From positions 796,156 through 860,155 of the forward strand of contig CP097967.1 in assembly GCA_023703535.1 (NCBI GenBank): a stretch of 64,000 bases of DNA. The letters run 5' to 3'. Below are positions 34,829-63,427 of this stretch, one piece after another (the first letter of the stretch is position 1; each line of letters starts with the position of its first letter). The notes under the pieces are model-generated. The model was not told where the DNA came from. It searched no databases and saw only the letters and a program-made list of their open reading frames with translations. The position numbers and the translations under genes are program-made. Origin of the DNA: SAR86 cluster bacterium (GTDB lineage Bacteria > Pseudomonadota > Gammaproteobacteria > Magnimaribacterales > TMED112).

Positions 34829-34830
34829 AA

Positions 34831-39315: not shown

Positions 39316-39327
39316 GTGGCATTTATT

Positions 39328-46286: not shown

Positions 46287-46308
46287 CTTAGGTATATTAC
46301 AACTGGAG

Positions 46309-46314
46309 TATAAT
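46309..46314 (+). promoter_or_regulatory. Internal -10 box (TATAAT) upstream of the kdsB-like gene
   Basis: Perfect TATAAT 11 nt before ATG 46326, in the only sizeable gap of this operon. Confidence 0.35.
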
Positions 46315-46325
46315 GTTCAGAATTT

Positions 46326-47075
46326 ATGAATAATACAATCTGCATAATACCGGCTAGGATGGGCTCTTCAAGATTCCCTGGGAAAGCTTTAGAAAAGATT
46401 TGTGATATTGAAATGCTTCATCATTGCTTTATAAGGGCAAAGTTAGCAGAATGCTTTTCCGATATCTACATAGCTACTCCAGATCAGGAAATTCATGATT
46501 TTAGTAAATCTATTGGTTGCAAATCTATAGATACTAAAGATACTCATACAAGATGTACCGAAAGAATAGCTGAAGCAATTACAAAAATTGATGATTCTTT
46601 TGAAAATGTTGTACTTTATCAAGGAGATGAGCCTTTATTTTCTCCTGAAATTTTGAAAATGCTTGCAAATTACATTTCGAATAATGCTGACAGAACAGTT
46701 ACTCTTATGGATGAGATCTCAGAAGAACAAGCCGAAGATTTAAATAATCCAAAAGTAGTAGTTGATCTAAATAATTATGCTGCATTCTTTTCTAGAGCTG
46801 CAATACCAGGATCTCTTAAAGGTCATAGTGAAAAGTTCTTTAAACATATAGGAGTTGTAGCTTTTAAGAAGTCTCTTCTTTATGAATATGCCAATATGGC
46901 TGAGGGTCCTTTAGAACGTGCAGAAAGTATCGATATGTTAAGATTCACTGAACATAGTGTTCCAATTAAAATGCTTTTATGTGAATCTAAAACAATAGGT
47001 GTTGATACGCCTAAAGATTTGGAAGATGTAGAAAAGCTTATGGTCAATGATAGTTATTATTTAAGGTATAAATAA
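46326..47075 (+). CDS. kdsB: CMP-Kdo synthetase-family cytidylyltransferase
   Basis: IIPARMGSSRFPGKAL, QGDEP, LERAESIDMLR, GVDTPKD. Confidence 0.88.
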   Translation: MNNTICIIPARMGSSRFPGKALEKICDIEMLHHCFIRAKLAECFSDIYIATPDQEIHDFSKSIGCKSIDTKDTHTRCTERIAEAITKIDDSFENVVLYQGDEPLFSPEILKMLANYISNNADRTVTLMDEISEEQAEDLNNPKVVVDLNNYAAFFSRAAIPGSLKGHSEKFFKHIGVVAFKKSLLYEYANMAEGPLERAESIDMLRFTEHSVPIKMLLCESKTIGVDTPKDLEDVEKLMVNDSYYLRYK

Positions 47076-47076
47076 A

Positions 47077-47955
47077 ATGGCAAAAAAGGTATTAGTTGTA
47101 GGTGGCTCAGGTTTCTTAGGAAGCCATGTTGCAGATGAACTTACTGAGAAAGGTTATGAAGTAACTATATTCGATCAGAAAAAATCAACTTGGATAAATG
47201 ACAATCAGAAATTTATAGAAAGCGACTTACTTGACAGAGAACATGTAATTAAAAGTCTAGAAGGATTTAACTTTGTCATTCATTTTGCTGGTATCGCAGA
47301 TATTGGAGAGTCAAAAGAAAAACCGCTTGAAACTATCGAAACAAATATTATTGGGACAGCAAATCTTCTTGAAGGATGTAGAAAAAATAAAATTGAAAAA
47401 TTTATTTTTGCTTCATCTGTCTATGTATTCAGCAAATATGGTTCCTTTTATGGAAAATCAAAACAGGCCTGTGAATTACTGATTGAGGAGTATCAAAATG
47501 AGTTTAACCTCGACTATATTCATGTTAGGTATGGCTCTTTATATGGTCCTAGAGCGCAAGAATGGAACGGTTTAAAAAAATACATATCAGAAATTATAAA
47601 AAATAAACAAATAGATTTTTCAGGAAATGGTGAGGAAAAGAGAGAGTACATTCATGTTAAAGATGCTGCAATTATGACGGCAAGTCTTTTAGAGAGCGAT
47701 GAAAAAAATATTGCTGTGAATATTACAGGCCATCAAGTAATAAGCACCTTGGATTTATTTAAATTAATCTTTGAGGTACTGCAACTTGAAGAAAAGATTA
47801 ATTTATCAAAAGAATCAAATGTTGTTTCTCATTACAAAATTAGCCCATATAGCTTTCAACCTAAAGAATCAAAGAAACTTGTTCCTAAAAAATTTATAGA
47901 TATTGGCCAAGGAGTATTAGAAATAATTCACGAAATAGAGGATTCTAAGAATTAG
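47077..47955 (+). CDS. NAD-dependent epimerase/dehydratase
   Basis: GGSGFLG, HFAG, ASSVY, YGKSK, RYGSLYGP. Confidence 0.88.
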   Translation: MAKKVLVVGGSGFLGSHVADELTEKGYEVTIFDQKKSTWINDNQKFIESDLLDREHVIKSLEGFNFVIHFAGIADIGESKEKPLETIETNIIGTANLLEGCRKNKIEKFIFASSVYVFSKYGSFYGKSKQACELLIEEYQNEFNLDYIHVRYGSLYGPRAQEWNGLKKYISEIIKNKQIDFSGNGEEKREYIHVKDAAIMTASLLESDEKNIAVNITGHQVISTLDLFKLIFEVLQLEEKINLSKESNVVSHYKISPYSFQPKESKKLVPKKFIDIGQGVLEIIHEIEDSKN

Positions 47956-48409
47956 ATTCTCTTAATTCCAAAACATAATCACTACAAACACCAAAAATTT
48001 CTTTATCTAATTTTATTTTTGAAACTTCCATATCCCATTCAGGCATCACCAAAATCGAGTTTTTCAGAAGTTTTTTTCCAGGATAAACCCATACAAAATT
48101 CTTAGAAGTTAGGGTGTAGTCATCTTCTTGATGCCAGAAATAATTTGCATCTTGAAATAAGTTGATATGGTTTAGCGCCTCTAAATCTTTGCAATGAATC
48201 CAAAACCTATCAATGCTATCAAGTAAAAAGTCTTTTGATATTGGATATTGATTATAATCGTGTCCCAAGAAAAGGTTATTACTCTCATCACATCTTAGAT
48301 CAATTTCAACATCGAAACCTTTTTCTAAAGCCTCACAGATTTGATCAGGATTATTTTCTTTATCTTTGTCAGGTCCTTGAAATAGACCCCGATGAGCTAT
48401 GAATTTCAA
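47945..48409 (-). CDS. PLC-like/glycerophosphodiester phosphodiesterase-like small protein
   Basis: IAHRG, EN, GFDVEIDL, LGHD, WIHCK, GVCSD. Confidence 0.75.
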   Translation of the reverse strand: MKFIAHRGLFQGPDKDKENNPDQICEALEKGFDVEIDLRCDESNNLFLGHDYNQYPISKDFLLDSIDRFWIHCKDLEALNHINLFQDANYFWHQEDDYTLTSKNFVWVYPGKKLLKNSILVMPEWDMEVSKIKLDKEIFGVCSDYVLELRESNS

Positions 48410-49776
48410 TTTTTAAAGTGATTATGATAAAAATCTAAATCTTCAGGTGTACCTAAGCCCCACATTTCTTCAACATCATAAATTTTTATCTTTTTCTTAT
48501 CTTCAATAGCTTGATTAAAGACAGGGCAAACATAGAATTCGTTATTTACACGTATGTCTTTTTGTATCATATCTTCAGCATATTTCACATAATCAGATCC
48601 TTTGCTCCAATAATAGACCCCAACAGTTGCATCTTCAGAAATCACTTGCTTTTCTGCAACTTCAGTTACAAATCCATCGTCACCTGATTTTGCATAAGAC
48701 CATTTTGGATGAGTTGCCTTAAAGGTTAAGATTCCTCCGTCTACTTTGCTTTCAGACATGTTGTACATGGTGTTTGAAGCATTCCATTTAATGTATTGAT
48801 CAGAATTAGCTATAACTAATGGATTGTCATTGTTTATAAATTCTTTAGCTAATAGTGTTGTGCAAGCTGCACCCTCAGTAACTCCGCTTATTTCAATTAC
48901 CTCACAATTAGGTCTTATGGCTTTCAAAAATGATTTCATATTATATTTTTCATTATGTTCTTTCTGAATAATGAATATGAATCTACCCTCTATAGCTAAC
49001 GACTCAACAACAACCTGTATCATTGGTTTGCCAAAAACTTCTATTAACGGTTTAGGAAACGTATATCCTGCTTGTGCAAACCTTGAGCCTGCTCCAGCGC
49101 ATGGAATAAGAACATTTATATTAGGATCAGTCCAAATTTGGTTCATGCTGCTATTATCAAACTTTTTAAGATAATTTGGTAGATTCTTCTCGACGAGATC
49201 TCTAGGATTTTTAACGGCAAATAGATTAGCTCCAGAATCTAGCGCTCCTTTTCTTCCAACAAAGGAATCCTCTATTATTACTGTTTGTTTGGGTGTAACT
49301 CCTGCTTTTAGCATGCACTGCCAATACATCTCAGGATAAGGTTTAGGAAATTTTACATCATCATTACTCACAAAATAGTCAACATCATTTATTACATCAA
49401 TTTTCTGGAGCATTTTTTCTACTGTTGATCGAATGCTATTACTTGCGACCATTACCATATAATCCTTCGAAACTTCTTTAACGAGCTCTGTAATACCCTC
49501 AATTCTAATATCAATCTCATCAAGTACTTCAATGGTTCTTGTTTGCTTCTCTTCCCATATTTCTTTAAAAAACTTTTTATCTAAACCTTTTTCTTCATTA
49601 AGAATCTCAAGCTTTCTTTTAGTTGGTAGTCCATCATATTTTTCAAGATGCTCCTCGTAAGTGATAGATATATTAAATTTAGCTAATGATTTATTAAGTG
49701 CTTCGAAATGAAGCATTTTAGACTCCATTAGAACGCCATCAAGGTCGAAAATAACTAATATATCTTGGTTTTTCAT
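48406..49776 (-). CDS. HAD phosphatase plus sugar nucleotidyltransferase fusion
   Basis: N-domain FDLDGV...KPYP...IEDS; C-domain IPCAGAGSRF, FPKPLI, TEGAACT, NSDQ, GLGTPED. Confidence 0.88.
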   Translation of the reverse strand: MKNQDILVIFDLDGVLMESKMLHFEALNKSLAKFNISITYEEHLEKYDGLPTKRKLEILNEEKGLDKKFFKEIWEEKQTRTIEVLDEIDIRIEGITELVKEVSKDYMVMVASNSIRSTVEKMLQKIDVINDVDYFVSNDDVKFPKPYPEMYWQCMLKAGVTPKQTVIIEDSFVGRKGALDSGANLFAVKNPRDLVEKNLPNYLKKFDNSSMNQIWTDPNINVLIPCAGAGSRFAQAGYTFPKPLIEVFGKPMIQVVVESLAIEGRFIFIIQKEHNEKYNMKSFLKAIRPNCEVIEISGVTEGAACTTLLAKEFINNDNPLVIANSDQYIKWNASNTMYNMSESKVDGGILTFKATHPKWSYAKSGDDGFVTEVAEKQVISEDATVGVYYWSKGSDYVKYAEDMIQKDIRVNNEFYVCPVFNQAIEDKKKIKIYDVEEMWGLGTPEDLDFYHNHFKN

Positions 49777-49850: not shown

Positions 49851-50819
49851 GTGAAATTTGGTCTAATTATCCAAGGCCCTCTATTATCAATAGGTAGAGG
49901 TGTAAGTTCGTACAAAAAAAAGGCAGAAACGAGCGAAAATGAAATCATTAAACACCAATGTGATGAAACAATAATTTCTAATATTGAAAACTATGGAAAT
50001 TTGTTCGAGAAAATAATTATTTCTACTTGGAAAGATGAAAAGATCTCAAAAAAATTATCAGAATATATAAAGTCTAAAAATAATGTTGAAATCTATCAAT
50101 TTTCCAAAAGTGATGTTCCAGAACTGCCAAAATTAAAAGTGCCATCTTCTTGGAGCAAAGAGATGAGCTCTATTATGAATGTAAACAATAATTTAAATCA
50201 GTACACAGGATGCAAGTTGGGGTTGGTGAAATTAAAGGATGTTGATTTTGTTATAAGAGTAAGGACTGATCAAGAAATTAATATACAAAAATTAAAGGAA
50301 TTTATATTAGAAAACCCAAAAAAGATCGTAGTTCCTGGAATATTTTTTGAAAATTATATATATCAAATTGCGGACTTTTATTTTGGTGGCAGTTATAAAA
50401 ATATTCTTAATTTTTTTGAAGCATGTTCAAAAAATATTTTTGATTTTTCCCCACATATTAATCCGATATCTTGTCTAGCAAATAGTAAATACCTTGATGA
50501 ATTAAATATGAATTCTGAGGTACTTTATTATTCAAAGGAGTCTTTTCAGTACAAAATTATGCAAAATTTCGTAATTAGTAAGGCATTGTTACCAAGTCCC
50601 AGCAGCATTTATCAAAAAATTTCTTGGCGAGGAGAAAAGGCTGGAACAGAGTGGAAAAATCAAAATAAAAACATATATTTCTATGAAAATTTCTCAGATA
50701 TTAAACAATTGGTATTGCCTGAGTCTAATAGAATAATAGATTCAAAACTTTATAGCTCTAAATCAAACTTTTTTACTAAAGTACTAAGAAGATTAATTAA
50801 ATTAGAATTATTCAAATGA
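49851..50819 (+). CDS. WavE-like LPS synthesis protein
   Basis: LIIQGP, IISTW, NNN..Q, RVRTD pattern; GTG start. Confidence 0.65.
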   Translation: MKFGLIIQGPLLSIGRGVSSYKKKAETSENEIIKHQCDETIISNIENYGNLFEKIIISTWKDEKISKKLSEYIKSKNNVEIYQFSKSDVPELPKLKVPSSWSKEMSSIMNVNNNLNQYTGCKLGLVKLKDVDFVIRVRTDQEINIQKLKEFILENPKKIVVPGIFFENYIYQIADFYFGGSYKNILNFFEACSKNIFDFSPHINPISCLANSKYLDELNMNSEVLYYSKESFQYKIMQNFVISKALLPSPSSIYQKISWRGEKAGTEWKNQNKNIYFYENFSDIKQLVLPESNRIIDSKLYSSKSNFFTKVLRRLIKLELFK

Positions 50820-52561
50820 AAGAATATTTAATACGTATTTACTCATTACTTTATGAAGATAAAAAAAGACTTCCATTACTGCTTGTACTGTTTTTACTTA
50901 CTTCATTTTTTGATGCGTTAAGCCTAGCGATTTTATTTCCATTTATACAAATACTTGTGAATTTTCAGGATTTTCAATCTAGTTATGGATGGTTTTTTGA
51001 GAGCATAAACCTTACTTCGAAATCGGAAATTATTACATTCTTAGGCATTACACTTGTTTCACTATTCATTATTAAAGCTCTTGCTTCAATCTTGGTAAAC
51101 TGGGCCATTTTAAGAATAACCTACAATAGACAAGCAAAGATTAAAACATCTCTACTACATAAATACCTTAATATGCATTACAGAAAGTATATAGAAGGAA
51201 ATAGTGCCAGATACATTCAGATGATTCAAACAATGAGTATGCAATTCATTAAAGTTTTGCAAGGATTTTTAAGGCTTCTTTCAGATGGTCTTATTTTTCT
51301 TTCGATAGTAATTGTTTTAGCTATTGTTGAAGGCCCACTTTTAATTTATGTCGGCGGCATGATGATAGTTCTTCTTTTAATATATGACATTTTTTTCAAA
51401 AAACTTTTAGATAGCCAAAGTAGAGCTATTACTGACTCTAGTGTACAAGTCACAAAAACAGTAAATGAATCAATCCAAGGTCTTAAAGAAATTAAGATTC
51501 TTGGAAAACAAAACTTTTTTGAAGATATTCTTAAGGAAAATGTAGACATTTATGCAAAAAATAATATTTATGCTGATCTAATAAGAACGCAGCCAAAACA
51601 CATTATTGAGTTGATATTTGTAATTGCTTTTACTTTGGCAGTTGTGTTCTTTACTCCATTACAAAACGATTTTCAGAGCTTAATACCCACGCTTGGAGTA
51701 TTTCTCTTTGCTGCAATTAGGTTAATGCCTACCCTTAATCAAATGCTTGCTTCTGTAAATGTTCTTAGAATAGGCTACTATCCCACTACCCTTCTTTTTG
51801 AGGACATGACAACAAAACAAGACCTTGAAGAAGATGATTATAAAGCAAATGTCTTAAAAGATGGCTTCACCTCCATGCTTTTGAAAAATGTATTTTTCTC
51901 ATATAAAAATGATAAAGAACATCAATTAAATGGTATTTCATTACAGGTTGATAAAAATAAATCGATAGGTCTTTTTGGACAATCTGGATCAGGAAAAACA
52001 ACTCTTGTCGACGTGATGTTAGGTCTACTAGAGCCAAGTAAAGGCGAGATTCATTTAAATAACAAAATTGTAAAAAATAATAAAGAATTTAGAAATTTAG
52101 TGGCATATATTCCACAAGATATTTTCATAATTAACGACTCAGTAAAAAACAATATAACTTTAACTGGGAGGGATGAAGTTATTGATGATGTTTTATTAGA
52201 AGATGTAGTGTTGAGATCAAGACTTAAAGAGGTTATCAATAATCTCCCTGAGGGAATTAATACAAATATTGGAGAAAGAGGAGTAAAGCTTTCTGGAGGT
52301 CAAAAACAAAGAATTGCTATAGCTCGAGCACTCTATAACAAAAGAGAAGTTCTTATTATGGATGAGGCAACTAGTGCTTTGGATAATAATACGGAAAAAG
52401 AAATAATTGATGAAATAAGAAAGCTAAAAGGTAAAGTTACTATGGTAGTAATAGCGCATAGGCTTACAACACTGCAGCACTGTGATGAAATTTATGAAAT
52501 TAGTAATGGAAGAATTAGTGAAAAATATAACTATGAAGACATAAGTAAAAGTAAAAAATAA
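50816..52561 (+). CDS. ABC transporter permease/ATPase (MsbA/PglK-like glycolipid flippase)
   Basis: TM domain, GQSGSGKT, LSGGQ, MDEATSALD, IAHRL. Confidence 0.92.
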   Translation: MKEYLIRIYSLLYEDKKRLPLLLVLFLLTSFFDALSLAILFPFIQILVNFQDFQSSYGWFFESINLTSKSEIITFLGITLVSLFIIKALASILVNWAILRITYNRQAKIKTSLLHKYLNMHYRKYIEGNSARYIQMIQTMSMQFIKVLQGFLRLLSDGLIFLSIVIVLAIVEGPLLIYVGGMMIVLLLIYDIFFKKLLDSQSRAITDSSVQVTKTVNESIQGLKEIKILGKQNFFEDILKENVDIYAKNNIYADLIRTQPKHIIELIFVIAFTLAVVFFTPLQNDFQSLIPTLGVFLFAAIRLMPTLNQMLASVNVLRIGYYPTTLLFEDMTTKQDLEEDDYKANVLKDGFTSMLLKNVFFSYKNDKEHQLNGISLQVDKNKSIGLFGQSGSGKTTLVDVMLGLLEPSKGEIHLNNKIVKNNKEFRNLVAYIPQDIFIINDSVKNNITLTGRDEVIDDVLLEDVVLRSRLKEVINNLPEGINTNIGERGVKLSGGQKQRIAIARALYNKREVLIMDEATSALDNNTEKEIIDEIRKLKGKVTMVVIAHRLTTLQHCDEIYEISNGRISEKYNYEDISKSKK

Positions 52562-53430
52562 TGAGAGCCTTCTGTTACATTCAAAAAAAATACTATAAGT
52601 GGAAGATTGATCTAATAGCAGATGATTTATTTAAAGGCGAAAAGAAAAATTGTGAAATTGAAATAGTTTATCCAGAAAATTTTTCATTAAATACTCTTTC
52701 CAAAAAGAAGAAATATGATTTTCTAGTTGGCTGCAATGTTGATGATTTTAAATTCCAGCTACTGTATAAATTTTTAGATTTCGATAAATTTATTACCTTT
52801 GATGAGGGTCAAAGAAATATAAATGAAAATGATAAATATTATTCCAAGAATTTTTCTTTTGAAAATCAAAAAAAGTTTTATTTTTTGAATAAAATTTGTG
52901 GCTTTCCATTACCTTTTGGAAAGCTCCTGGAGAAAAGTGATAAACACTATTCGTTTTTTGACCCAAAAATTTTTAATCATCCTATTAAATCGACCACGTT
53001 TCTTAAGAAGAAAAAAATTACAAAAAAGATTACAAAGATATTCTTTGGAGTAAGTAGCAATTGGGTTTTTAGTCATAGAGAAGATCTTTTGAATAAACCA
53101 AAAATCATAGAGAAGAAAATAAATGAAGCAGCTTTGAAAATAAATAAACTGTGTCCTGATCTATACATCCCCCACCCCAGAGAAGATGAGAGAATACTAG
53201 AATTACTTAATGAGAATATTACTGTTGTAAATTGTCCAAATGGAAGTGAGGATTTTGTTAATAAATTAGCTTTAAATAATGAAATTGAGGTATTTACAGA
53301 AAAATCAGGGATAGTTTTTGATCTTAACAAAAAAATAAAAATTTCTTTTATTGATTTATTTAATAGGTTTAGTAAATCTGAATACGACAAGTTTAAAAAT
53401 CAATATAAAGAATTTAAGAAAAGCAATTAA
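52561..53430 (+). CDS. GT52-like CMP-ulosonate (sialyl-type) transferase
   Basis: TFDEG (D/E-D/E-G motif) and PHPRE (HP motif), as in Lst-type sialyltransferases. Confidence 0.7.
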   Translation: MRAFCYIQKKYYKWKIDLIADDLFKGEKKNCEIEIVYPENFSLNTLSKKKKYDFLVGCNVDDFKFQLLYKFLDFDKFITFDEGQRNINENDKYYSKNFSFENQKKFYFLNKICGFPLPFGKLLEKSDKHYSFFDPKIFNHPIKSTTFLKKKKITKKITKIFFGVSSNWVFSHREDLLNKPKIIEKKINEAALKINKLCPDLYIPHPREDERILELLNENITVVNCPNGSEDFVNKLALNNEIEVFTEKSGIVFDLNKKIKISFIDLFNRFSKSEYDKFKNQYKEFKKSN

Positions 53431-53674
53431 ATCGAAATGTTAGGTAAACTGTTGTAAATTGTCCAAATGGAAGTGAGGATTTTGTTAATAAATTAGCTTT
53501 AAATAATGAAATTGAGGTATTTACAGAAAAATCAGGGATAGTTTTTGATCTTAACAAAAAAATAAAAATTTCTTTTATTGATTTATTTAATAGGTTTAGT
53601 AAATCTGAATACGACAAGTTTAAAAATCAATATAAAGAATTTAAGAAAAGCAATTAAATCGAAATGTTAGGTAA
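53221..53674 (+). repeat. Exact tandem duplication, 2 x 227 bp (53221-53447 and 53448-53674)
   Basis: Copies compared base by base with no mismatch seen; unit spans the last 69 codons plus stop of the GT52-like gene and the start of the next gene. Confidence 0.95.
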
Positions 53675-54542
53675 AGATAGTAAAAAAAATATTCAATTTC
53701 CCGTACAAAAACAAGGCACACCAAGTGTAGTAGTTTTAGAAGACTTTTTTAATGAAGAATTTATAAGAGAAGCTAATAATGATTTTGAAGAGTTTATAAA
53801 AAAATCATCTGAGGTCGATTTTCTTAGTTTTGGAGAAACACGAAAAAATCTATCTTCAAGAGGATCTAGATATGAGGAAATTGTCAAATCGTCAAAATCT
53901 ATCAACAAAATTTGTGAATATATTAAGTCTGAGGAATTCTTTAAAAAATGTATTAAAAATTCGACTGAAGCATTCAATAAAAAAGGATTAAAAATAAAAA
54001 TTCCAAAATTTAATCAAAATTCCTTTGACTCTCTTAGGTTTGCTAAAAAATTCTCTATCTTATGGGCACTTAATAAGCTTCGCTTTGTTTTGTTTCGAAT
54101 TCCCTTTTTTGGAGACTTATTTGAGAGATTAAGTTTATCTATTTTTGGAAACGTAGCTCCTACTATTGATGTTGCACAATCTGCAATGGGTTATGAAGTT
54201 GGAATGCATACTGATAGCAGATTTAAACTCATGGCCGGAATTATTTATTTAAATACAACAAAAAATGATAGTGACGGGGAAACAGAGTTTTGGAGCTCCG
54301 AAGGTCTTTCAAACCTTGAAAATCAAAAAAGATATCCAGATAAGGAGGATATTAACAATTCCAAACTTTTAATGAGTGTTAAACCTAAGGCGGGAAGAAC
54401 TGTTTTATTCATAAACTCAAATGATGCTTATCATAGTGTTAAGAAATTTAAAGGAGATAAAAGGAACATCATATATTTTTCCTTTTCTGTTCCTATTTTA
54501 GATAATATCTGGAAAACAGATTTTAAAGTTAAATCTCTTTAA
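53664..54542 (+). CDS. 2OG-Fe(II) oxygenase superfamily protein
   Basis: HTD, GIIYLN, GETEFW, AYHSV, R (HXD...H...R triad). Confidence 0.8.
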   Translation: MLGKDSKKNIQFPVQKQGTPSVVVLEDFFNEEFIREANNDFEEFIKKSSEVDFLSFGETRKNLSSRGSRYEEIVKSSKSINKICEYIKSEEFFKKCIKNSTEAFNKKGLKIKIPKFNQNSFDSLRFAKKFSILWALNKLRFVLFRIPFFGDLFERLSLSIFGNVAPTIDVAQSAMGYEVGMHTDSRFKLMAGIIYLNTTKNDSDGETEFWSSEGLSNLENQKRYPDKEDINNSKLLMSVKPKAGRTVLFINSNDAYHSVKKFKGDKRNIIYFSFSVPILDNIWKTDFKVKSL

Positions 54543-55365
54543 TTGCTTCAAGCATGTGTTGATGAACAACATCCTCTTTGCCTACCAGATCATTAGCTAA
54601 ACAAAAGCCTATGACTGCCTGCATAAGATTCATTCGTGAGCCATCAATACAATTAAGAGAAAGAGAGCTTGCATCTCTTAATAGTTTTGAAGGACTGTTT
54701 ATATAATTAACATCGAATAACAGAGCTTCTTTGTTAATTAAACTTAATTGACTAGTTGAAAGAATAGAATCTTCATTATTTCCATCTTTACCTATAGAGG
54801 TGCAATTTATAAGAACATCATAGCTTCCTATATCAAAATTAAGCGAACCATAATCTTTAAAATTCATTCCAAAATCGGTAAATAAACCAGAAATTTCCTG
54901 ATTTCTTCCATAAACATCTACATCAAAATTTTTATTTTGATTAGAAAGTTGATAGCACAATGATTTTGAAACTCCTCCAGTTCCAAGAATGCATACCCTT
55001 TGAATATCTAAATCTTTTTTTACAGAACTAATTGATTCGAGTAAAGCTAAGGTATCAGTATTAGCTGCTGTAAACTTGCCTTCAGAATTAAAGAAACAAT
55101 TTTTTGGCTCAATAAAACTACCATTATCATCTGCAAAATAATTAGCAACAACTTCTTTAAGTGGTGCTGCTACGGCTCCACCAATAAAATCAGGTTTTGT
55201 TGTTTCTGAATCTAAGAATTCTATTGCATCGCTTTCATGCTCTATATCTACAGTAGTCATTTCTGCATCAATATCGAGCGCATTAAAAGCAGCATTCCAT
55301 AAAATAGGAGAACGAGCACCCTTTGAAACATCTTTCCCTATTATTACCGCCCTCTTCATCGTCAA
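54529..55365 (-). CDS. Divergent shikimate dehydrogenase-family protein
   Basis: RSP, PLK, NTD, LGTGG, MNLMQA; several substrate residues changed. Confidence 0.8.
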   Translation of the reverse strand: MTMKRAVIIGKDVSKGARSPILWNAAFNALDIDAEMTTVDIEHESDAIEFLDSETTKPDFIGGAVAAPLKEVVANYFADDNGSFIEPKNCFFNSEGKFTAANTDTLALLESISSVKKDLDIQRVCILGTGGVSKSLCYQLSNQNKNFDVDVYGRNQEISGLFTDFGMNFKDYGSLNFDIGSYDVLINCTSIGKDGNNEDSILSTSQLSLINKEALLFDVNYINSPSKLLRDASSLSLNCIDGSRMNLMQAVIGFCLANDLVGKEDVVHQHMLEAIKEI

Positions 55366-56237
55366 ATTACTTCTTTAGAAACTGCTTTTGCAACGTTATC
55401 CATTTTTTTCATGAGAGAATTAAACGTTTCAAAGTTGATTGGTTGCAAAGGATCAACAGCAGAATTTTCTGGATCTGGATGAACCTCTAACATTATTGAA
55501 TCAGCTCCAGATGCAATTGATGCAAGTGTCATTGGTTCGACCCAATCACGCCAGAAGGTTGCATGGGATGGGTCTGTAGCAACTGGAATATTTGTTATTT
55601 CTTGTGTTGCTGGAACAACTTGTAAATCCAATGAAAATCTAGAAGTTGCCCTGTGAGTATGTGGAATTGACATTCCTCTCTCACATAAAATTAATTTTGT
55701 ACAGCCCTCCTTAAGAGCGTACTCAGCTGCTCCCAACCAATCTCTTAATGAGGCACCATAATGTCGTTTAAGCATTATAGGGAAACCTGTCTTTGCTGAT
55801 TCTACAATTAGAGGATAATTTTGCATGTTTCTAGATCCAATCTGAAGAATATCTGTAGCATCGCATACTGCATCTAAATGTTTTTCTTCCATAACTTCAG
55901 TTATGACAGGTATTTCAACCTCCTCTCTGGCTGATTTTAACCACTTTAGACCATCTAAGCCCGTTTCTGTATATTTCTCATTTCTATAAGGAAAACTTAA
56001 AGGTTTGAAAGCTCCACCTCTTAGAAAACTAGCACCTGAAGCTTTTACTGACTTCGCAGTTTCTATGATGAGTTCTTCTGACTCAACCATGTTTGGACCT
56101 GCCATAACAGGAATCTTTTTACCATTAAAAACAACACCTGCTATTTCGAAAGGTTCTTTTGAAAAATTAGCTACTAAAGGTATTTTGGACTTTATATCCT
56201 CTTCAGTTATATCTTTTCCGGGAAACTTGTTATACAT
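55362..56237 (-). CDS. Divergent type I-beta DAHP/KDO8P synthase-family protein
   Basis: AGPNMVES, RGGAFKP, QIGSRNMQN, LKR, LCERG, DPSH, EVHPDP, AVD; no regulatory domain. Confidence 0.9.
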   Translation of the reverse strand: MYNKFPGKDITEEDIKSKIPLVANFSKEPFEIAGVVFNGKKIPVMAGPNMVESEELIIETAKSVKASGASFLRGGAFKPLSFPYRNEKYTETGLDGLKWLKSAREEVEIPVITEVMEEKHLDAVCDATDILQIGSRNMQNYPLIVESAKTGFPIMLKRHYGASLRDWLGAAEYALKEGCTKLILCERGMSIPHTHRATSRFSLDLQVVPATQEITNIPVATDPSHATFWRDWVEPMTLASIASGADSIMLEVHPDPENSAVDPLQPINFETFNSLMKKMDNVAKAVSKEVI

Positions 56238-57291
56238 CTTGCCCTAGTTTAGCTGATCTCACATCATCAGAAAATGAAATTATTGAATTATTCTCCACAG
56301 ATGAATATAAAGCATGAATATATTTTATTGAATCTAAACTGGATTCTGCACTTGTAGGAAAAATAATTTTTCCTGAATCATTAAAATTTTTACTAATTTC
56401 TTTAAGCATATGATAATGACCGTTACCATAACCATTTTTTACAGTTTCTGAGTTCTCTTTAAGTTCATTTGATAGCTCCACTCCATCAAGCTTAACTCTT
56501 GTAAGCTCATTTAAAGCGATACCTCCAACTGAAATTTGATATTTATCAGTCACCACTTCTAATGATGCTGAAAAATCTTCAGGTCTCACAGCGGTCGTTG
56601 CTTCAATTGTAAAAAATCCACCCTTTAAAAGTGTTCCAGACGCAACAAAAGTATCCTCAGCCTCAAGTTTATTATTGATATTTCCAGAGAAACCAGATAA
56701 AAATTGCGGAGGGCCAAATAAATAAAATAGAGCATCAATATGGTGTATTGCTTGTTGGCTAATTACTCCACCATCTGTTTTCCATCTCCCGTGCCATTCA
56801 TCATTGTAATAATCTTGAAACCTACACCACTGCAATTTAACACTTGCTGAAATGATTTTTCCAAAATCATTTTGTGAAAAGAGATTTTCAATATATTTAA
56901 TAGGTTTATTCAGTCTGTTTTGAAATACACCTCCGTAAAGAACATTTTTTTCTTTAGCAAGTGCCATATTTGCAACAACATCCTCTACGTTAAGACCTAT
57001 AGGTTTTTCACACAGAACATTAACTCCATTTTGTAAAAGTACCTTTGAGTTTTCAGCATGACTGCCTGATGGAGTAGTAATTATTGCAATATCAACATCA
57101 TCTTTGCTTACCTCATCTATTGAAGCAAAGGTCTTACCTGAATTCTCTTTTTCCCATTTGCTCCTTGATTCTGCATACTGGTCTATGCCTACAGAAAAAA
57201 TATATTCATCAGATAAATTTTCTTTAATAACTTCAGCATAATGTTGAGCTGCTCGCCCTAAACCTATGAAAGCTAGTTTTAATTTACTCAA
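56230..57291 (-). CDS. Gfo/Idh/MocA oxidoreductase (WlbA/WbpB-like)
   Basis: GLGRAA, CEKP, QNR, WCRFQDYY..WHGRWKTDGG, QAIHHID. Confidence 0.85.
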   Translation of the reverse strand: MSKLKLAFIGLGRAAQHYAEVIKENLSDEYIFSVGIDQYAESRSKWEKENSGKTFASIDEVSKDDVDIAIITTPSGSHAENSKVLLQNGVNVLCEKPIGLNVEDVVANMALAKEKNVLYGGVFQNRLNKPIKYIENLFSQNDFGKIISASVKLQWCRFQDYYNDEWHGRWKTDGGVISQQAIHHIDALFYLFGPPQFLSGFSGNINNKLEAEDTFVASGTLLKGGFFTIEATTAVRPEDFSASLEVVTDKYQISVGGIALNELTRVKLDGVELSNELKENSETVKNGYGNGHYHMLKEISKNFNDSGKIIFPTSAESSLDSIKYIHALYSSVENNSIISFSDDVRSAKLGQDV

Positions 57292-58609
57292 ATTTCACCT
57301 CAAACTTACTCATTTCTTCTTCAGTGCTTATTTCAATCATATCAGCTTGATTAAGTTGGGGGATAAGATTTACCCTTTTTTGTAAAAAGTTCCCATTCCT
57401 TAAATCTGATGCATTAAGTGTGCACCCAAAACCAAATGGACAAATCATCACTGATGATTCCTCCAATTCTCTTGGTAATAGCTGATTATTTATTGCTATT
57501 TCACTTTCCTCTCCTCTTGTAAAACATATTCTTTTTTCTTCATGGCTATAAAGTGTTGGTAGAAATGCTGATTCGTAAAAACTATCTACCAAATTTTTAA
57601 AACTACTCTGATCTCTAAAAGGGTAGTTAACAGAAGAAAGAGTAATAGAATTAGGTATATATTTTTGATTTTCAAAATCTAAAAGACAATCTTTTAATAC
57701 ATCATTTAAGGAGGTGTCATAGTCTTTTGTGCTTCTATCAAAAATATTGAGTCCAGATTCTTCTGCTTGCTTCAAAGCCTTTTTATCAATTCCACAAAAT
57801 ACTATGTCTTCAAAAACCGAACTTTTTTTTGCATCACTTATAACTTTTCGCAAAAGACCAAGACGAAAGTTGTCATATTTTTCTCTATCAAAAATAATAA
57901 GTATGTCTTTTGTTTTTCCTTTATATTCACAAAGATTTTCACTCTTAAATTCGTCTGCTTCCATTATTTGAACAATTTTTTTAGCTCTTTTTTTATCTGC
58001 TTCCTGATGTATGCCATGATGATGAAAAACTACTGCATCCGGCTCATATACAATCTTGAGTTTATTCTTTATAACTTCTTTTCCCCAAATTCTGTCCTCA
58101 ATATTAGTCACTTCATCATCGAAACGAAATTTCTCCCAGGTTTTTCTTGTAAATGCTGAGTTGGCGTTGTGAAAAAAAGAATCCTTTTCCTGAACTCTCT
58201 TATCATTTCCAAATGTCAAAAATAAATCCCTTTTATCGAGATAATGTGATGAACTTGTGGGTACTTGCTTTCCATAAACACCCGCAATTTTTTCATCTTC
58301 TAAATCACTTACTAAATTTTTAAGCCAATCTTTCTCTTTGGGAATGCAGTGAGCAGACAAACATATCAGATAATCTCCTGAAGAGTTTTCAATTCCATAA
58401 TTTATTGCGTTTCCTGGTTTAAATTCTTTGAGGGTAACTACTTTTACATTCCATTCTTTTGCTTTTTCAACAGTCTTGTCTGTGGAACAGTTATCTACAA
58501 TAATTACCTCAAAATTTTTGTAATCCTGTTTGAAAATTGCATTTAAACAAATAGAAATCCATTTTTCTTCATTCTTTGTTCTAATTATTATGGAAGCTTT
58601 TTTCATCAT
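57284..58609 (-). CDS. GT2 glycosyltransferase with C-terminal degenerate cytidylyltransferase-like domain
   Basis: SIIIRTKNE, VDNCSTD, LSAHC, NANSA, IEDRIW; C-half has YPFR and IEISTEEE echoing NeuA motifs. Confidence 0.75.
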   Translation of the reverse strand: MMKKASIIIRTKNEEKWISICLNAIFKQDYKNFEVIIVDNCSTDKTVEKAKEWNVKVVTLKEFKPGNAINYGIENSSGDYLICLSAHCIPKEKDWLKNLVSDLEDEKIAGVYGKQVPTSSSHYLDKRDLFLTFGNDKRVQEKDSFFHNANSAFTRKTWEKFRFDDEVTNIEDRIWGKEVIKNKLKIVYEPDAVVFHHHGIHQEADKKRAKKIVQIMEADEFKSENLCEYKGKTKDILIIFDREKYDNFRLGLLRKVISDAKKSSVFEDIVFCGIDKKALKQAEESGLNIFDRSTKDYDTSLNDVLKDCLLDFENQKYIPNSITLSSVNYPFRDQSSFKNLVDSFYESAFLPTLYSHEEKRICFTRGEESEIAINNQLLPRELEESSVMICPFGFGCTLNASDLRNGNFLQKRVNLIPQLNQADMIEISTEEEMSKFEVKFE

Positions 58610-59340
58610 ATTTTCTCTGGTACCGGAGGTAAATTGTCAAAATCATTCTCTTTGATCCATTCGGCTGCCTTATTAGCTAAAAATAAATCAAAATTATTAT
58701 GTATGTCTAACGCTGAAAAGCTTCTATTATCTGTTATCAGCTTAACATTGTCACCAATTCTACGCCCATTCCTCCAAAGGTTTGAACGAGATGCACAAGC
58801 TAACCCAGTATCTTCCCTGTATGATTTTCTTCTAACTTGTCTACTCTCATAAACACTCATCCATTCTTTTAGACGTATTGGATTATTATCAATTACCTCC
58901 CAAAAGTTTTTGTGAGTTTCATTAGCGACGAATACACTCTCTAATTCATTATTTTCTTCAAGTGCATCTATAGCATGATCTATCCATCCATCTCTTCTGA
59001 ACAAATCAGTACATGTTAAAAAAACGCATATATCAAAGCTTTGTTTAAATATTTTTTCTGACTCCAATAAAGAATACTTTAATGTCTCCTCAGTGGTTGT
59101 TAAATCACCTGAAACATCACTAGTACGCAAAAACGGAACTTCTGCACCATATTTTAAAGCAACCTCCCTTATGTCTTTATCGTCTGTAGAAACAACTATT
59201 TTCGAAAGTTTCTTAGATCTTTTAGCTGCCTCGATTGGCCATGCAATTAAAGGATGACCCAAGAATTCTCTTAAATTCTTTTTCTCAAGCCCTTTAGAAC
59301 CTCCCCTTGCAGGGATTATTGCTATACTATTACTCTGCAT
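58606..59340 (-). CDS. Acylneuraminate cytidylyltransferase-family protein (NeuA-like)
   Basis: IIPARGGSKGLEKKN, VVSTDD, GAEVPFLR, LDIH. Confidence 0.9.
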   Translation of the reverse strand: MQSNSIAIIPARGGSKGLEKKNLREFLGHPLIAWPIEAAKRSKKLSKIVVSTDDKDIREVALKYGAEVPFLRTSDVSGDLTTTEETLKYSLLESEKIFKQSFDICVFLTCTDLFRRDGWIDHAIDALEENNELESVFVANETHKNFWEVIDNNPIRLKEWMSVYESRQVRRKSYREDTGLACASRSNLWRNGRRIGDNVKLITDNRSFSALDIHNNFDLFLANKAAEWIKENDFDNLPPVPEKI

Positions 59341-59356: not shown

Positions 59357-60523
59357 ATGATAAGTATAGTAATTCCATCTAGAAATGATGACATTGAAGT
59401 TTTTCAAAAAACCATTAACGCAATAAAAAAACAAACTGTATTGCCAAAAGAAATTATTATTGTTGATTCAAGTACTGATAATTCAATAAAAAACTTTTTA
59501 CAAAAGCAAAAATTAAAGCTAATTAATCTTATTTACAAAAAAATTGATGGGTCATTTGCAGGAAAAAGTACAAATATTGGAATGTCTCTTGCAACACAAA
59601 AGTTTATTGGTTTGCTTGATACCAAAACAATTCCAAATGATACATGGATAGAAAAATACATAAAACAATTGGAAAGAGATAACTCAGATTTGATTTTTGG
59701 AAATACAAAATTCTTCTCTAAAAATAGATTTCAAAAAATACTAAGAATTCTTTCATATGGTGACGCGTCACATGAAACAGTTCCTGGAACTATATTTAAG
59801 CGCAGTAAATTCGGCAAAAAAATGTTTTTCATTGAAAATGTCAGATCATCATATGATATTGAGTGGAGAGAGAGACAAAAAACTCTTTTGAAAACTTCTT
59901 TAGGTAATGAGATTGAAATAGAGTATGGAGAATTTCCAAATTCATTCTTGGATGCTGCAAAAAAATACTTTATTTATAGTTTTTATACTGCAATTGTAAA
60001 TGTTCAAAAGGATGCGAAAGATCTATATTTATCAATTTTTATAATCTTATCCGCATTAGTCATACCAAGATGGAATTTTTTTCTTGAAGGCTGGGATGAA
60101 AATCCGCTCTATATTGCAGATGTAACAAAAAAATACTTTTTATCACTATTGGTAATTTTTTTGAGTTTTTTAATTGCATCAAGATTTTTTCCTAAACAAG
60201 TAGAAAATAGGCTTCCATTTATTACTCTTAAATACACAGTTTTTCTTTTTATCTTTCTTTCTGTTTTTAATTGGAATGCAGTAGTGGCTGACTGGGTAGA
60301 GGATACTGTTTTTTACATTCCACATATCACGAAAATTTTTGTGGTTTTAGTTTTGGTTTCCTCTGTATTGGTTAGAGGACTTTTTAAACCAGTAAGCAAC
60401 AAAGTTAAATTAAATTATCTTCTTCCCTTTAGGTGGTTATTTATTGGCACTATTGGGCTAATACTGGATATTGTTAAAGCTCCTGGTTACATAATAGGTT
60501 CCTTGATTTCAAAATTTAGATAA
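59357..60523 (+). CDS. GT2 glycosyltransferase with C-terminal membrane domain
   Basis: SIVIPSRND, IIVDSS, LLD, followed by several TM helices. Confidence 0.8.
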   Translation: MISIVIPSRNDDIEVFQKTINAIKKQTVLPKEIIIVDSSTDNSIKNFLQKQKLKLINLIYKKIDGSFAGKSTNIGMSLATQKFIGLLDTKTIPNDTWIEKYIKQLERDNSDLIFGNTKFFSKNRFQKILRILSYGDASHETVPGTIFKRSKFGKKMFFIENVRSSYDIEWRERQKTLLKTSLGNEIEIEYGEFPNSFLDAAKKYFIYSFYTAIVNVQKDAKDLYLSIFIILSALVIPRWNFFLEGWDENPLYIADVTKKYFLSLLVIFLSFLIASRFFPKQVENRLPFITLKYTVFLFIFLSVFNWNAVVADWVEDTVFYIPHITKIFVVLVLVSSVLVRGLFKPVSNKVKLNYLLPFRWLFIGTIGLILDIVKAPGYIIGSLISKFR

Positions 60524-61253
60524 AACTTTTTATATCAAGAAACTCTGATTCAATGTTGTAAGATTTAGAAATTCTTTTTGGGATTTTTAATGCTTTAATT
60601 TTTAAGCTCTTTGAAAATGAATTCATAAATCTTAAGAAATTAAGTGGACTCCCATTTAAGTCATTTTTATACTCTTGTAATTGTTGAATTATGTAATCTT
60701 TCACAATAAAAATACTCTGATCTGCTAACCCCTCGTCCCAATTTATTTCTATTTTGTTATCAATTGAGAGATGAATATCCTTAACAAAGTCAGAATTTTC
60801 TTTGAGCACATATTTCACATAAGGATTTTTATCAAATATTAAGGGTACAAAAATGTCAGCACCCTCAGAAATATTTAAATGCTTTTCAAATGCAGATGTT
60901 GAATCGATAATAAAAGTATCGCCCCAGCACACAAATATTAGACTACCATTTGCTTTAAAACTACGTAATCCATCTAAAACAGCTTGTCCATCCCCTGAAC
61001 CAGACTCACTTTCAATGAATTTAATCTTAGATAAAAAATGATCCTCAATATTTTTGTTGAACAATTCTTTTGAAGATTTATCTTTAGGTATTGGTATTAT
61101 TATTGTTTCAAAATACTTATTAACTTCCTCTAAAAGATAATTTATCGCTGCTCTACCATTAATTTTTAGTAGTTGCTTTGGTACTGATGATTTCATTCTT
61201 GATGATTTTCCAGCACATGGAATTATAATTTTTCTCAAGAATCTGATCTCCAT
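60516..61253 (-). CDS. Nucleotidyltransferase (GlmU-N/IspD-like fold)
   Basis: IPCAGKSSRM, PKQL, GDGQAV, WGD. Confidence 0.8.
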   Translation of the reverse strand: MEIRFLRKIIIPCAGKSSRMKSSVPKQLLKINGRAAINYLLEEVNKYFETIIIPIPKDKSSKELFNKNIEDHFLSKIKFIESESGSGDGQAVLDGLRSFKANGSLIFVCWGDTFIIDSTSAFEKHLNISEGADIFVPLIFDKNPYVKYVLKENSDFVKDIHLSIDNKIEINWDEGLADQSIFIVKDYIIQQLQEYKNDLNGSPLNFLRFMNSFSKSLKIKALKIPKRISKSYNIESEFLDIKSFI

Positions 61254-63427
61254 TTCGAGCTATTTGCGCCCATTATTAATGATGAAATTTTTAAATTATC
61301 ATGTTTGCCTGAATCAATAGATTCAAAATCTTCAGCGAGTATTTCTTTAAGATCTAATTGATATAATTCACTCATATTTAACCTTATGTATCTGGAATCT
61401 TGTTTTGATGGAGAATTTGAGATAATTACATCAAAAAGTTCAGGTACCTGAAAATTAAGTTTTCCCTTTTGATTTAAATAAAACCTTGCCTGTTTAATTT
61501 GATCTGCAGCTGTAAATTCTGGCGTTTCATTATCATGATCAATATTTGTTATAAAAAACTTTTGTGCTGAAGATTTTGAAATCTCTTCAGTTAATCCTTT
61601 TGTCCAATAAGTTGGATATAAACTGCTGTATTGAGTACCAGGACCATATATTATTATGTCAGCTTTTCGAACTGCTAAAGCAGTATCTTGGCTAAGGTCA
61701 GGGAATGGTGATGATATATTTTCAAGAAATTGTTTTTTCTTAATAAGCCCTGTTAAAGATTCAAATTGTTTCTCTTCTTCTTCTGATAGTGGGTATGTTT
61801 TATAAAAAATTTCAAAAATTGGTGTTTTTCCCTCATAACCTACAATTTCTGACTCGTCTTTCAGAAGCTTTCCATCCTCTGTAAGACCAAAAAGATAACC
61901 AGCTTCTGATGAATTAAGGAAAACCTCATTTGGCAAATTGAAGGCATCTCTCACCATAAGTTCAACTTTCTTTATATCCCCATATTTATGCTCTAGAGAA
62001 CCATAAATAATATTAGACAAGGCAAAATCTTGGATTTCTAATGATTTATTTTGCTCTTCAGAAATTTTTTTAAAATGTGAAAGCGAATCACTAATTATCT
62101 CTTGCATCTGATAATTCATTTTTTGGTAATAAGGGAAAAACTCTGATTTATAATTTTGATTATCTAAAAGCTTAGAAATATCATTTTTAAAATCAAGAAA
62201 GTCACATGATGTACGGCTTTTAAAAAAATCGAGCCCCTCTCCTTCAGGATAATAAAATTCATATTGAGTTTCTTGGACTTTTCTTAAATCAGAAGGTCCT
62301 AAAATTTTGTAATCAAAAAAAGCTCTTATCGCGCCAGTTGAAAGGCCATCATCATAAGCATTAATAATATTTGTTAAATTTAAATTAACGTCATTTACTT
62401 TTGAAAACTCTCTAAGTCCATCACATAAGTTTATCGAGCCTCTTCCTCCTGAAAATACGACTACATTCAAACCATTTTGATTAATATCATAAAATCCTTT
62501 TTTTCCTTGAATACCATGAAGATATCCTTTGAAAAAATAGCGAAGATTTATTAGAAAATTGTGATAATTAGAATGAAAGAATAAAAAAAATAAGCCTGCA
62601 GTAAACTTTAAATTGTGAGCAAGCAAGTATAAAAACCACCCAACCGAGAATGATTTGAAGTTCTTTTTAAGAAATAATAATGATCCTCTTGTTGAGTAAT
62701 ATAACCATTGTTTATTTGCATATTTATTTTTGCTGCCTGTTTTAGTATCGTGATAACCAATAGCTTTCGGAGTAAAGCGATGAATATTTTTCGCTTTTAT
62801 AGAACGGTACATCAGATCATGATCGTCGTAATAGAGAAAGTAATCTTTATCAAACCAACCAATTTCTTTTTCTATTTTTCTGGAAATTAATACCATACAT
62901 CCATTTAGGGCATCAAGAGTTCTAGCTTCAGAGAATTTTTCGTGATTAGTCTCATTAACACCAATACCCTTTGCTATTGCATAGTAAGGTTTTAAGTCGG
63001 CACCAATAGCATGCAATGTATCCTTATTTTGAAAATAAAATACTTTTCCGCCAACAAAAGTATGTTTTTCTGATTTTTCTGCTTCATTAACTAGCTCAGC
63101 AACACAATCTTTATCAAGTACTACATCTTCGTCCATTTTTAGCATGTATTTCCAATCCTCACGAATAACCTTTAAGGCTTCAATATATGAACCTGATGAA
63201 CCAGAATTTAATTTTAAATCTAGAAGTTTTATTTTTTTGTTATCTATTTCCCTAGAAAAGATTTTTTTAATTTCAGATACTGTTCCGTCATTAGAGTTAT
63301 TGTCTACAACAATTACCTCAAATGAATCCTCTGGATAATTTTGTGAAAGAATGGATTGAATGCTTTCATTGATAATGTACTTTCTGTTATAACTTGCTAC
63401 AACGATGCTAACAAAAGGTTTTTTCAT
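61235..63427 (-). CDS. GT2 glycosyltransferase fused to CofD/YvcK (UPF0052) domain
   Basis: N: SIVVASYN, VVDNNSND, MDED, YYDDHD. C: SGGRGS, YDDGLSTG, GPSDLRK, GPGTQYSSLYP. Confidence 0.85.
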   Translation of the reverse strand: MKKPFVSIVVASYNRKYIINESIQSILSQNYPEDSFEVIVVDNNSNDGTVSEIKKIFSREIDNKKIKLLDLKLNSGSSGSYIEALKVIREDWKYMLKMDEDVVLDKDCVAELVNEAEKSEKHTFVGGKVFYFQNKDTLHAIGADLKPYYAIAKGIGVNETNHEKFSEARTLDALNGCMVLISRKIEKEIGWFDKDYFLYYDDHDLMYRSIKAKNIHRFTPKAIGYHDTKTGSKNKYANKQWLYYSTRGSLLFLKKNFKSFSVGWFLYLLAHNLKFTAGLFFLFFHSNYHNFLINLRYFFKGYLHGIQGKKGFYDINQNGLNVVVFSGGRGSINLCDGLREFSKVNDVNLNLTNIINAYDDGLSTGAIRAFFDYKILGPSDLRKVQETQYEFYYPEGEGLDFFKSRTSCDFLDFKNDISKLLDNQNYKSEFFPYYQKMNYQMQEIISDSLSHFKKISEEQNKSLEIQDFALSNIIYGSLEHKYGDIKKVELMVRDAFNLPNEVFLNSSEAGYLFGLTEDGKLLKDESEIVGYEGKTPIFEIFYKTYPLSEEEEKQFESLTGLIKKKQFLENISSPFPDLSQDTALAVRKADIIIYGPGTQYSSLYPTYWTKGLTEEISKSSAQKFFITNIDHDNETPEFTAADQIKQARFYLNQKGKLNFQVPELFDVIISNSPSKQDSRYIRLNMSELYQLDLKEILAEDFESIDSGKHDNLKISSLIMGANSSKWRSDS

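Follow-up and report, generated by a model that had tools for sequence, protein, structure and literature searches.

The alpha-carboxyketose synthases are usually listed with three main members, namely DAHPS (DAH7PS, 3-deoxy-7-phosphoheptulonate synthase), KDO8PS (3-deoxy-octulosonate 8-phosphate synthase), and NeuB. In the NeuB family, the enzymes NeuB, PseI, and LegI, together with NeuA, PseF, and LegF, convert phosphoenolpyruvate (PEP) and a non-phosphorylated aldose into an ulosonic acid and then into a CMP-sugar for surface or flagellin glycans, and the product of the non-metallo KDO8PSs (E. coli and N. meningitidis KdsA type) is a 2-keto-3-deoxy sugar acid, which enters a surface glycan after CMP activation. 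DAHPS requires a metal, and metal-independent KDO8PSs exist (PMC12531865). Here we analyzed a 64,000-nucleotide stretch of a SAR86 cluster genome (the window; contig CP097967.1, positions 796,156 to 860,155), in which gene D (55362..56237, minus strand) encodes a putative PEP:aldose synthase of 291 residues that was characterized by Pfam, NCBIfam, and PDB alignment. With a probability of roughly 0.68, we regard D as a PEP-dependent alpha-carboxyketose synthase, making a 2-keto-3-deoxy sugar acid that would be CMP-activated as the ulosonic acid of a surface glycan. In this proposal, D would resemble both the NeuB systems and the non-metallo KDO8PSs in the kind of pathway that it serves.

The closest solved relatives of D are the unregulated type I-beta DAH7PSs (A. 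pernix 1VS1, E 2e-57; P. furiosus 1ZCO, 1e-55; also the T. maritima 1RZM core), which share with D the (beta/alpha)8 fold at 36-43% identity, the PEP-binding residues, the His, Glu, and Asp of the metal site, and the lack of a regulatory domain. KDO8PS structures match far more weakly (about 1e-17). DAHP_synth_1 is the only clear Pfam domain (residues 38-282, 2e-50, 171.6 bits). The original prediction, which had been made from the sequence alone, described a protein without an ACT or chorismate-mutase domain; the Pfam search bore this out, as it detected neither of these domains nor a SAF domain in D. D therefore stands on a different superfamily branch from the NeuB family, as its NeuB match is marginal (23.2 bits) and not the best one, and SAF is absent. 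An AlphaFold model of D, computed with 56 family sequences (mean predicted local distance difference test, pLDDT, 87; predicted template modeling score 0.88), gave template modeling scores of 0.79-0.83 with 1vs1, 1rzm, and 1zco in a fold search vs about 0.75 with KDO8PS. The only weak segments of the model are the beta2-alpha2, beta6-alpha6, beta7-alpha7, and beta8-alpha8 loops, which form the aldose site.

Alignment with 1vs1 and 1zco showed that the PEP-binding residues are kept in D as Lys78, Arg136, Lys157, Arg187, and His225. These five positions, as well as Glu251 and Asp262, are invariant within the D family, and by this sequence measure the catalytic scaffold of D is intact. The metal site of 1zco, which we take to consist of Cys31, His201, Glu227, and Asp238, corresponds to N49, H225, E251, and D262 of D, so that only the Cys is exchanged, for Asn49. 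L80, S81, and F82 of D fall on Arg62, Thr63, and Ser64 of 1zco, which turns the KPRTS motif of the I-beta enzymes into KPL[ST]F. D also differs from these enzymes by about 20 more family-specific substitutions in its aldose loops and by two insertions of three residues each (RNE after FPY and PHT after CERG). Because the non-metallo KDO8PSs likewise have an Asn in place of the Cys alongside unchanged His, Glu, and Asp, the SAR86/SAR11-type D is, by analogy with them, probably metal-independent. The Asn is a feature that D shares with the non-metallo KDO8PSs and not a sign of membership, as D is only 21-23% identical to them, has KPLSF instead of their KANRS loop, lacks a linked phosphatase or isomerase, and is accompanied by a cytidylyltransferase of the NeuA/PseF type rather than by KdsB.

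Both motifs on which the original prediction was built, AGPNMVES and GGAFKPLSFPY, are encoded in the DNA as read (gca ggt cca AAC atg gtt gag tca and ggt gga gct ttc aaa cct TTA agt TTT cct tat). Neither substitution can be a single-base sequencing error, as at least two base changes each would be needed to turn AAC into a Cys codon (TGY) and TTA into an Arg codon. The altered residues are instead a family signature. In a search that covered a collection of 5.8 billion proteins, all 120 of the 120 closest homologs (56-100% identity) had AGPNM[VI]E and GGAFKPL[TS]F. Likewise, in a scan with one genome per GTDB species, the signature was shared by 27 of 27 full-length loci of this Asn type, one of which (L041) has a single loop variant; a further locus (L045) is a fragment without the signature motifs. 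The Asn-type carriers belong to SAR86, the Pelagibacteraceae (including the cultured HTCC9565), Rhodospirillaceae, Thalassobaculaceae, Thiotrichaceae, and SAR324, and they also include Magnetovibrio, Azospirillum sp. ST 5-10, Nisaea denitrificans DSM 18348, Thalassobaculum fulvum KCTC 42651, an Ilumatobacteraceae metagenome-assembled genome (MAG), and a Prochlorococcus single-cell genome.

The remodeling of the aldose side extends well beyond the two motifs. When the columns of the D family were compared with a canonical I-beta set of 80 sequences, the loop binding the phosphate of erythrose 4-phosphate (E4P) had the Arg in 80/80 and the Ser in 78/80 canonical sequences, vs Leu and Phe in 100% of the D family (canonical R62 to L and S64 to F). 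The family has an inserted R85 where the canonical enzymes have no residue, KRH for KRG, xHTHR for IRTFE, SRF for TRN, DPSHATFW..W for DPSHAxG..L, and VDP for SDG. The family has two arginines fewer and many additional aromatic and His residues. Lys88, which lies in the same beta2-alpha2 loop as the invariant Arg85, is invariant in the Asn clade; Arg85 is absent from most Cys-type members, though KPxTF is common to them. Judged from these columns, the entire aldose pocket of the D family is rebuilt.

More distant relatives of D (40-50% identity) retain the Cys and share KP[LCA]TF, LKRH, CERGxxxxHTH, and an N-terminal KDI[ST]xxDL. They occur in Planctomycetia, Nitrospirota, Acidobacteria, Chloroflexota, Patescibacteria, and Deltaproteobacteria. 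A maximum-likelihood tree built from 121 sequences (quick search, with support from the Shimodaira-Hasegawa-like approximate likelihood ratio test only) placed the KPxTF proteins in one clade (99) inside type I-beta DAH7PS and, nested among the Cys-bearing members, gathered the Asn forms in one sub-clade (100). D has the signatures of this monophyletic family, namely KP[LCA][TS]F, LKRH, CERGxxxxHTH, and DPSH[AS]TF. The nested position of the Asn clade among Cys-type KPxTF proteins indicates that, within the sampled tree, the aldose site was remodeled first and that one Cys-to-Asn switch followed.

The original prediction had also placed D outside both DAH7PS and KDO8PS, and this agrees with the curated NCBIfam models for these enzymes, every one of which scored below its cut-off with D. 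For DAH7PS, the values were 259 bits vs 267.75 with TIGR01361, 296.6 vs 335 with PRK08673, and 215 vs 279 with PRK12595; for KDO8PS, they were 88.7 vs 314 with TIGR01362 and 89.7 vs 242 with PRK05198. Moreover, the host genome (1.07 Mb in one contig, 95% complete; nearest public MAG MED-G79, 99% identical) encodes elsewhere a canonical type I-alpha DAH7PS of 350 residues (GPCSIHD / KPRTT) and, between pyrG and eno, a non-metallo KDO8PS (L008; GGVNVIES / KANRSS). These separate canonical genes rule out that D is the sole or housekeeping enzyme of either kind. The only aroB of the genome likewise lies elsewhere. The best reading is that D descends from type I-beta DAH7PS but no longer serves the shikimate pathway.

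D is under strong purifying selection. The nonsynonymous rate was far below the synonymous one (pN 0.004 vs pS 0.11) in the comparison with a 99%-identical locus of the window's own species (L016), and dN/dS was 0.06 with an 80%-identical relative (L013) and 0.16 with a SAR11 copy. The operon of D is also represented in RNA data. In marine metatranscriptome assemblies from several studies, 35-51% of its k-mers are present, and at 95-100% identity, contigs extend over 55100-59300 and bridge each of the four gene junctions (S-D, D-G, G-T, and T-C). Coverage of the flanking plus-strand genes is almost nil, which speaks against a simple carry-over of DNA. Among the listed metatranscriptome variants within D, 18 of 20 are at third codon positions. 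Family-wide conservation, a pN well below pS, and the transcripts together rule out that D is a pseudogene. Within the host genus, D is present in only 5 of 30 species, yet its protein copies are 98-100% identical, which fits a transfer of the entire glycan island among species and not vertical inheritance.

Unlike that of the unregulated I-beta DAH7PSs, the setting of D is a glycan island with cytidylyltransferases in place of genes for aromatic amino acids. D belongs to a minus-strand operon of five genes in the order C, T, G, D, S with overlapping stop and start codons; the ATG of D and the stop codon of the gene upstream share an overlap of 8 nt, and the start of S overlaps the stop of D. 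The first gene, C (58606..59340, minus strand; CTP_transf_3 2.5e-25), is predicted to encode a CMP-ulosonic-acid synthetase of the NeuA/PseF type. Its best NCBIfam match is PseF with 118 bits (cut-off 205.7), vs 31-51 bits for the KdsB models. As the NeuB cluster and the third cassette in the window have their own CTP_transf_3 genes, C is, on this gene content, a dedicated activator for a sugar separate from those of the other cassettes.

T (57284..58609, minus strand) combines an N-terminal GT2 glycosyltransferase domain of the GT-A type (Pfam GT2, residues 6-156) with a C-terminal cytidylyltransferase-like domain. On the C-terminal domain of the window's own T there was no Pfam match; CTP_transf_3 does match T orthologs, C as a query matches the C-terminal half of two of them (L027 and L028), and in Nitrospirota T is split into separate GT2 and CTP_transf_3 genes. 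S85, A86, and H87 of T align to the DSD (DxD) motif of TarS, and S85, H87, and C88 are invariant in the orthologs. The fold model of T resembles polymerases with two GT-A domains. Since D, C, and T are the most widely conserved trio across phyla, T may have a biosynthetic function instead of being the final transferase.

G (56230..57291, minus strand; Pfam) is a WlbA-like Gfo/Idh/MocA dehydrogenase, a type that oxidizes secondary alcohols of sugars. Over its full length, it best matches 3q2i (E 1e-39) and 3q2k (1e-35), presumably both WlbA UDP-GlcNAcA 3-dehydrogenases, and matches inositol dehydrogenase at only about 1e-11. In contrast to the WlbA/WbpB systems, the window has no DegT aminotransferase after G; in some SAR11 loci, a class I/II aminotransferase is found there.

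S (54529..55365, minus strand; Pfam Shikimate_dh_N) encodes an extra paralog of shikimate dehydrogenase (SDH). All aroE models score far below their cut-offs with S, and a better aroE match lies elsewhere in the host genome. The best PDB matches of S are HI0607 SdhL and the 5-ketofructose reductase 7cok, an SDH-family enzyme that reduces a keto-sugar and thus sets a precedent for an action of S on a sugar ketone. In AroE, Lys and Asp are catalytic, and Ser, Tyr, and Gln hold the ring carboxylate. S retains the catalytic Lys70 and Asp104 together with the carboxylate-site Ser, Tyr221, and Gln249, and K70, N89, NTD102-104, GxGG, Y221, and Q249 are invariant in 20 orthologs. These retained residues fit a predicted ring-form hydroxy-acid as the substrate of S.

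To describe the neighborhood in other taxa, the genes of 30 D-family loci were clustered into families by all-against-all comparison. The recurrent neighbors were C/T (25 loci), S (21-25), and G (17), and all other families were found in at most 7 loci. The Cys-type relatives have related arrangements, with G-D-S in a Planctomycetia locus, D-C-T in Chloroflexota, a radical-SAM/SPASM gene followed by D-T-C in Patescibacteria, and S-G-D-S-NeuB-GT2-CTP_transf_3-CTP_transf_3 in Nitrospirota, the latter directly downstream of flagellin, csrA, and fliW. In Nisaea, D is the last gene of an operon with tetratricopeptide repeat, GT4, and GT28-like genes that is reminiscent of FlmG-type flagellin glycosylation. 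A radical-SAM/SPASM gene adjoins D in a SAR11 lineage (L010, 8895-10729) as well as in the Patescibacteria locus (L100, 6775-7767); it could encode a BtrN-like radical dehydrogenase that replaces an NAD-dependent oxidation. No recurrent phosphatase partner was present among the neighbor clusters of the 30 loci, and the haloacid dehalogenase (HAD) phosphatase queries matched only the locus of the window's own species (L016), two genes outside the D cassette.

From these data, we infer a pathway whose reaction, order of steps, product, and destination are proposed as follows. D would condense PEP with an aldose to a 2-keto-3-deoxy sugar acid (ulosonic acid). The aldose would not be held by an E4P-type phosphate site and would most simply be a neutral, non-phosphorylated sugar. 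G, or the radical-SAM dehydrogenase in some lineages, would oxidize one hydroxyl of the sugar or of its precursor, and S would reduce the oxidized position again, unless it is aminated by the aminotransferase, as may happen in some SAR11 loci. C would activate the product as a CMP-sugar, which the glycan machinery of the island would use for a strain-variable surface glycan, with T taking part in the process. As the partners of the E4P phosphate are lost, an aromatic and His-rich pocket is gained, and no phosphatase is linked, we favor on sequence grounds a neutral aldose, as for the NeuB-family enzymes. The original prediction, a possibly metal-independent synthase for a non-phosphorylated or other unusual aldehyde, is supported by these in silico results.

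Several points weigh against this proposal. The substrate loops of D are modeled with low confidence (pLDDT 57-70), and to our knowledge, an Asn at the Cys site is linked to metal independence in KDO8PS and has never been shown to be so in the DAH7PS lineage. G and S are missing from some loci (Patescibacteria, Chloroflexota, and Nisaea), so their role would be accessory. T lacks the DxD motif and may not be the transferase. Metatranscriptome contigs can include DNA carry-over, and a full-text literature search found no description of the D family. The labels 'Bifidobacterium', 'archaeon', and 'Rhizobium' on short MAG contigs with family members are probably binning errors. Finally, the aldose need not be non-phosphorylated, as Arg85, Lys88, His159, His193, His195, and Arg196 might hold a phosphate or carboxylate at a shifted position, and the pathway could rely on a phosphatase encoded elsewhere. 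The last point leads to the alternative that the aldose is still phosphorylated or otherwise anionic, although neither E4P nor arabinose 5-phosphate, that Arg85, Lys88, the His residues, and Arg196 hold it, and that an unlinked phosphatase acts before CMP activation, following the Kdo logic of KdsA, KdsC, and KdsB. The invariance of Arg85 and Lys88 in the Asn clade, the conservation of His159, His193, His195, and Arg196, and HAD phosphatases elsewhere in the window (45654-46286 and 48406-49776) are in line with it. We nevertheless consider it rather unlikely, as no phosphatase is linked to D in family loci outside the window's own species, most Cys-type members have KPxTF without Arg85, and at the canonical site Leu/Phe and His have taken the place of both cationic residues, in a pocket that is rich in aromatic residues.

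The homology of D to DAHPS, of S to shikimate dehydrogenase, and of G to a family with inositol dehydrogenases could also suggest a shikimate-like or cyclitol pathway, in which a DAH7P analog would be cyclized and reduced to a quinate-, shikimate-, or aminoshikimate-like carbocycle for a glycan or a secondary metabolite. This is very improbable, as no homolog of dehydroquinate synthase or sugar-phosphate cyclase and no dehydratase was found, whether in the window or among the 30 D-family loci, and the cyclase reaction needs a phosphate that the D site, to judge by its residues, would no longer bind. Furthermore, the partners that recur most are proteins of the cytidylyltransferase type, such proteins activate 2-keto-3-deoxy acids, and G is nearer to the sugar 3-dehydrogenase WlbA than to inositol dehydrogenase. 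The least probable explanation is that D is either an additional DAH7PS isozyme of the ordinary kind, which would form DAH7P from E4P and PEP, or else a decaying, inactive copy. Such an isozyme would agree with the database name 3-deoxy-7-phosphoheptulonate synthase, which databases give to the family (rarely, they use 'N-acetylneuraminate synthase family protein'), and with a TIGR01361 score close to the cut-off. However, P55, R56, and T57 have been named as the E4P-binding residues of an I-beta enzyme (PMC12202928), and the Arg for the E4P phosphate, like the metal Cys, is absent from every member of the Asn clade. D also lies in a glycan island and not among aro genes, and it is patchy within the genus; decay disagrees with purifying selection and transcription. 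The surface-glycan ulosonic acid synthase thus remains the reading that we prefer.

If D is such a synthase, the alpha-carboxyketose synthases would gain a fourth natural specificity, and the Asn clade would provide a second, independent switch from a metallo to a non-metallo enzyme, which would be informative on the part that the metal plays in the chemistry. More tentatively, and at slightly less than even odds, the family may form a third functional branch of the DAH7PS/KDO8PS lineage. Its members would be neutral-aldose synthases of glycan ulosonic acids, metal-free in the clade of SAR11, SAR86, SAR324, and some Prochlorococcus, with an undescribed CMP-activated product outside Kdo and the NeuB-made nonulosonic acids that would decorate strain-variable surfaces, and flagellins in other phyla. 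A new acidic sugar would then be present on some of the most numerous cells on Earth and be encoded in hypervariable glycan islands. Such islands are thought to govern phage susceptibility, and the product of D would be a possible determinant of recognition by phages and grazers in the sea. Thousands of D-family entries are annotated as DAH7PS of the shikimate pathway, so that reconstructed metabolisms of SAR11, SAR86, and many MAGs are distorted. The search for Cys-type members gave only MAGs (Nitrospirota, Acidobacteria, Chloroflexota, Patescibacteria, and Deltaproteobacteria) and no well-studied host with a known glycan. With Pelagibacter HTCC9565, Nisaea denitrificans, Thalassobaculum fulvum, and Azospirillum sp. 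ST 5-10, cultured carriers of D exist, and the question is therefore testable.

The rest of the island also encodes glycan functions. A glycosyltransferase gene of the sialyltransferase family GT52 (52561..53430, plus strand; Pfam Glyco_transf_52 1.9e-9) is a candidate user of a CMP-sugar from the island; it is not conserved together with D in other taxa. Its 3' end and the following spacer are part of an exact tandem duplication of 227 nt (53221-53447 = 53448-53674, 100%). Contigs with an identical D protein (L001-L004) have one copy of this repeat, which accounts for a coordinate offset of 227 nt, and the duplication may be real and recent, or it may stem from the assembly.

A complete cluster for a nonulosonic acid of the legionaminic acid type is located at 28945-38222. 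It comprises two SDR dehydratases/epimerases, a DegT aminotransferase, a PglD-like acetyltransferase, a hydrolyzing 2-epimerase, a PtmE-like CBS-NTP_transferase, a Gfo-like protein, and an SDR protein, as well as a NeuB with SAF domain (32671-33696; NeuB 293.6 bits) and a CTP_transf_3 protein (36757-37461). After this cluster comes a HisH/HisF-like pair (40434-41815), a possible source of an acetimidoyl group. Three conserved open reading frames of the island (49851-50819, 39316-40437, and 41816-43165; 322, 373, and 449 residues) had no significant match to a Pfam family.

A second small cassette at 44089-47955 encodes a Glucosamine_iso/6PGL-like protein, a D-2-hydroxyacid dehydrogenase, a HAD phosphatase, a CTP_transf_3 protein, and an SDR epimerase, and it may be another uncharacterized route to a CMP-activated acid sugar. 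The same cassette adjoins the D cassette in Pelagibacter HTCC9565 (L044, 2848-6853), where it is accompanied by an HpcH/HpaI pyruvate aldolase. At 60516-63427, a gene for a 730-residue fusion of a GT2 glycosyltransferase with CofD (2-phospho-L-lactate transferase) is followed by a MobA/CofC-like NTP_transf_3 gene, which suggests a phospho-linked glycan decoration of the lactyl, glyceryl, or enolpyruvyl type; the fusion is conserved in the 80%-identical relative L013.

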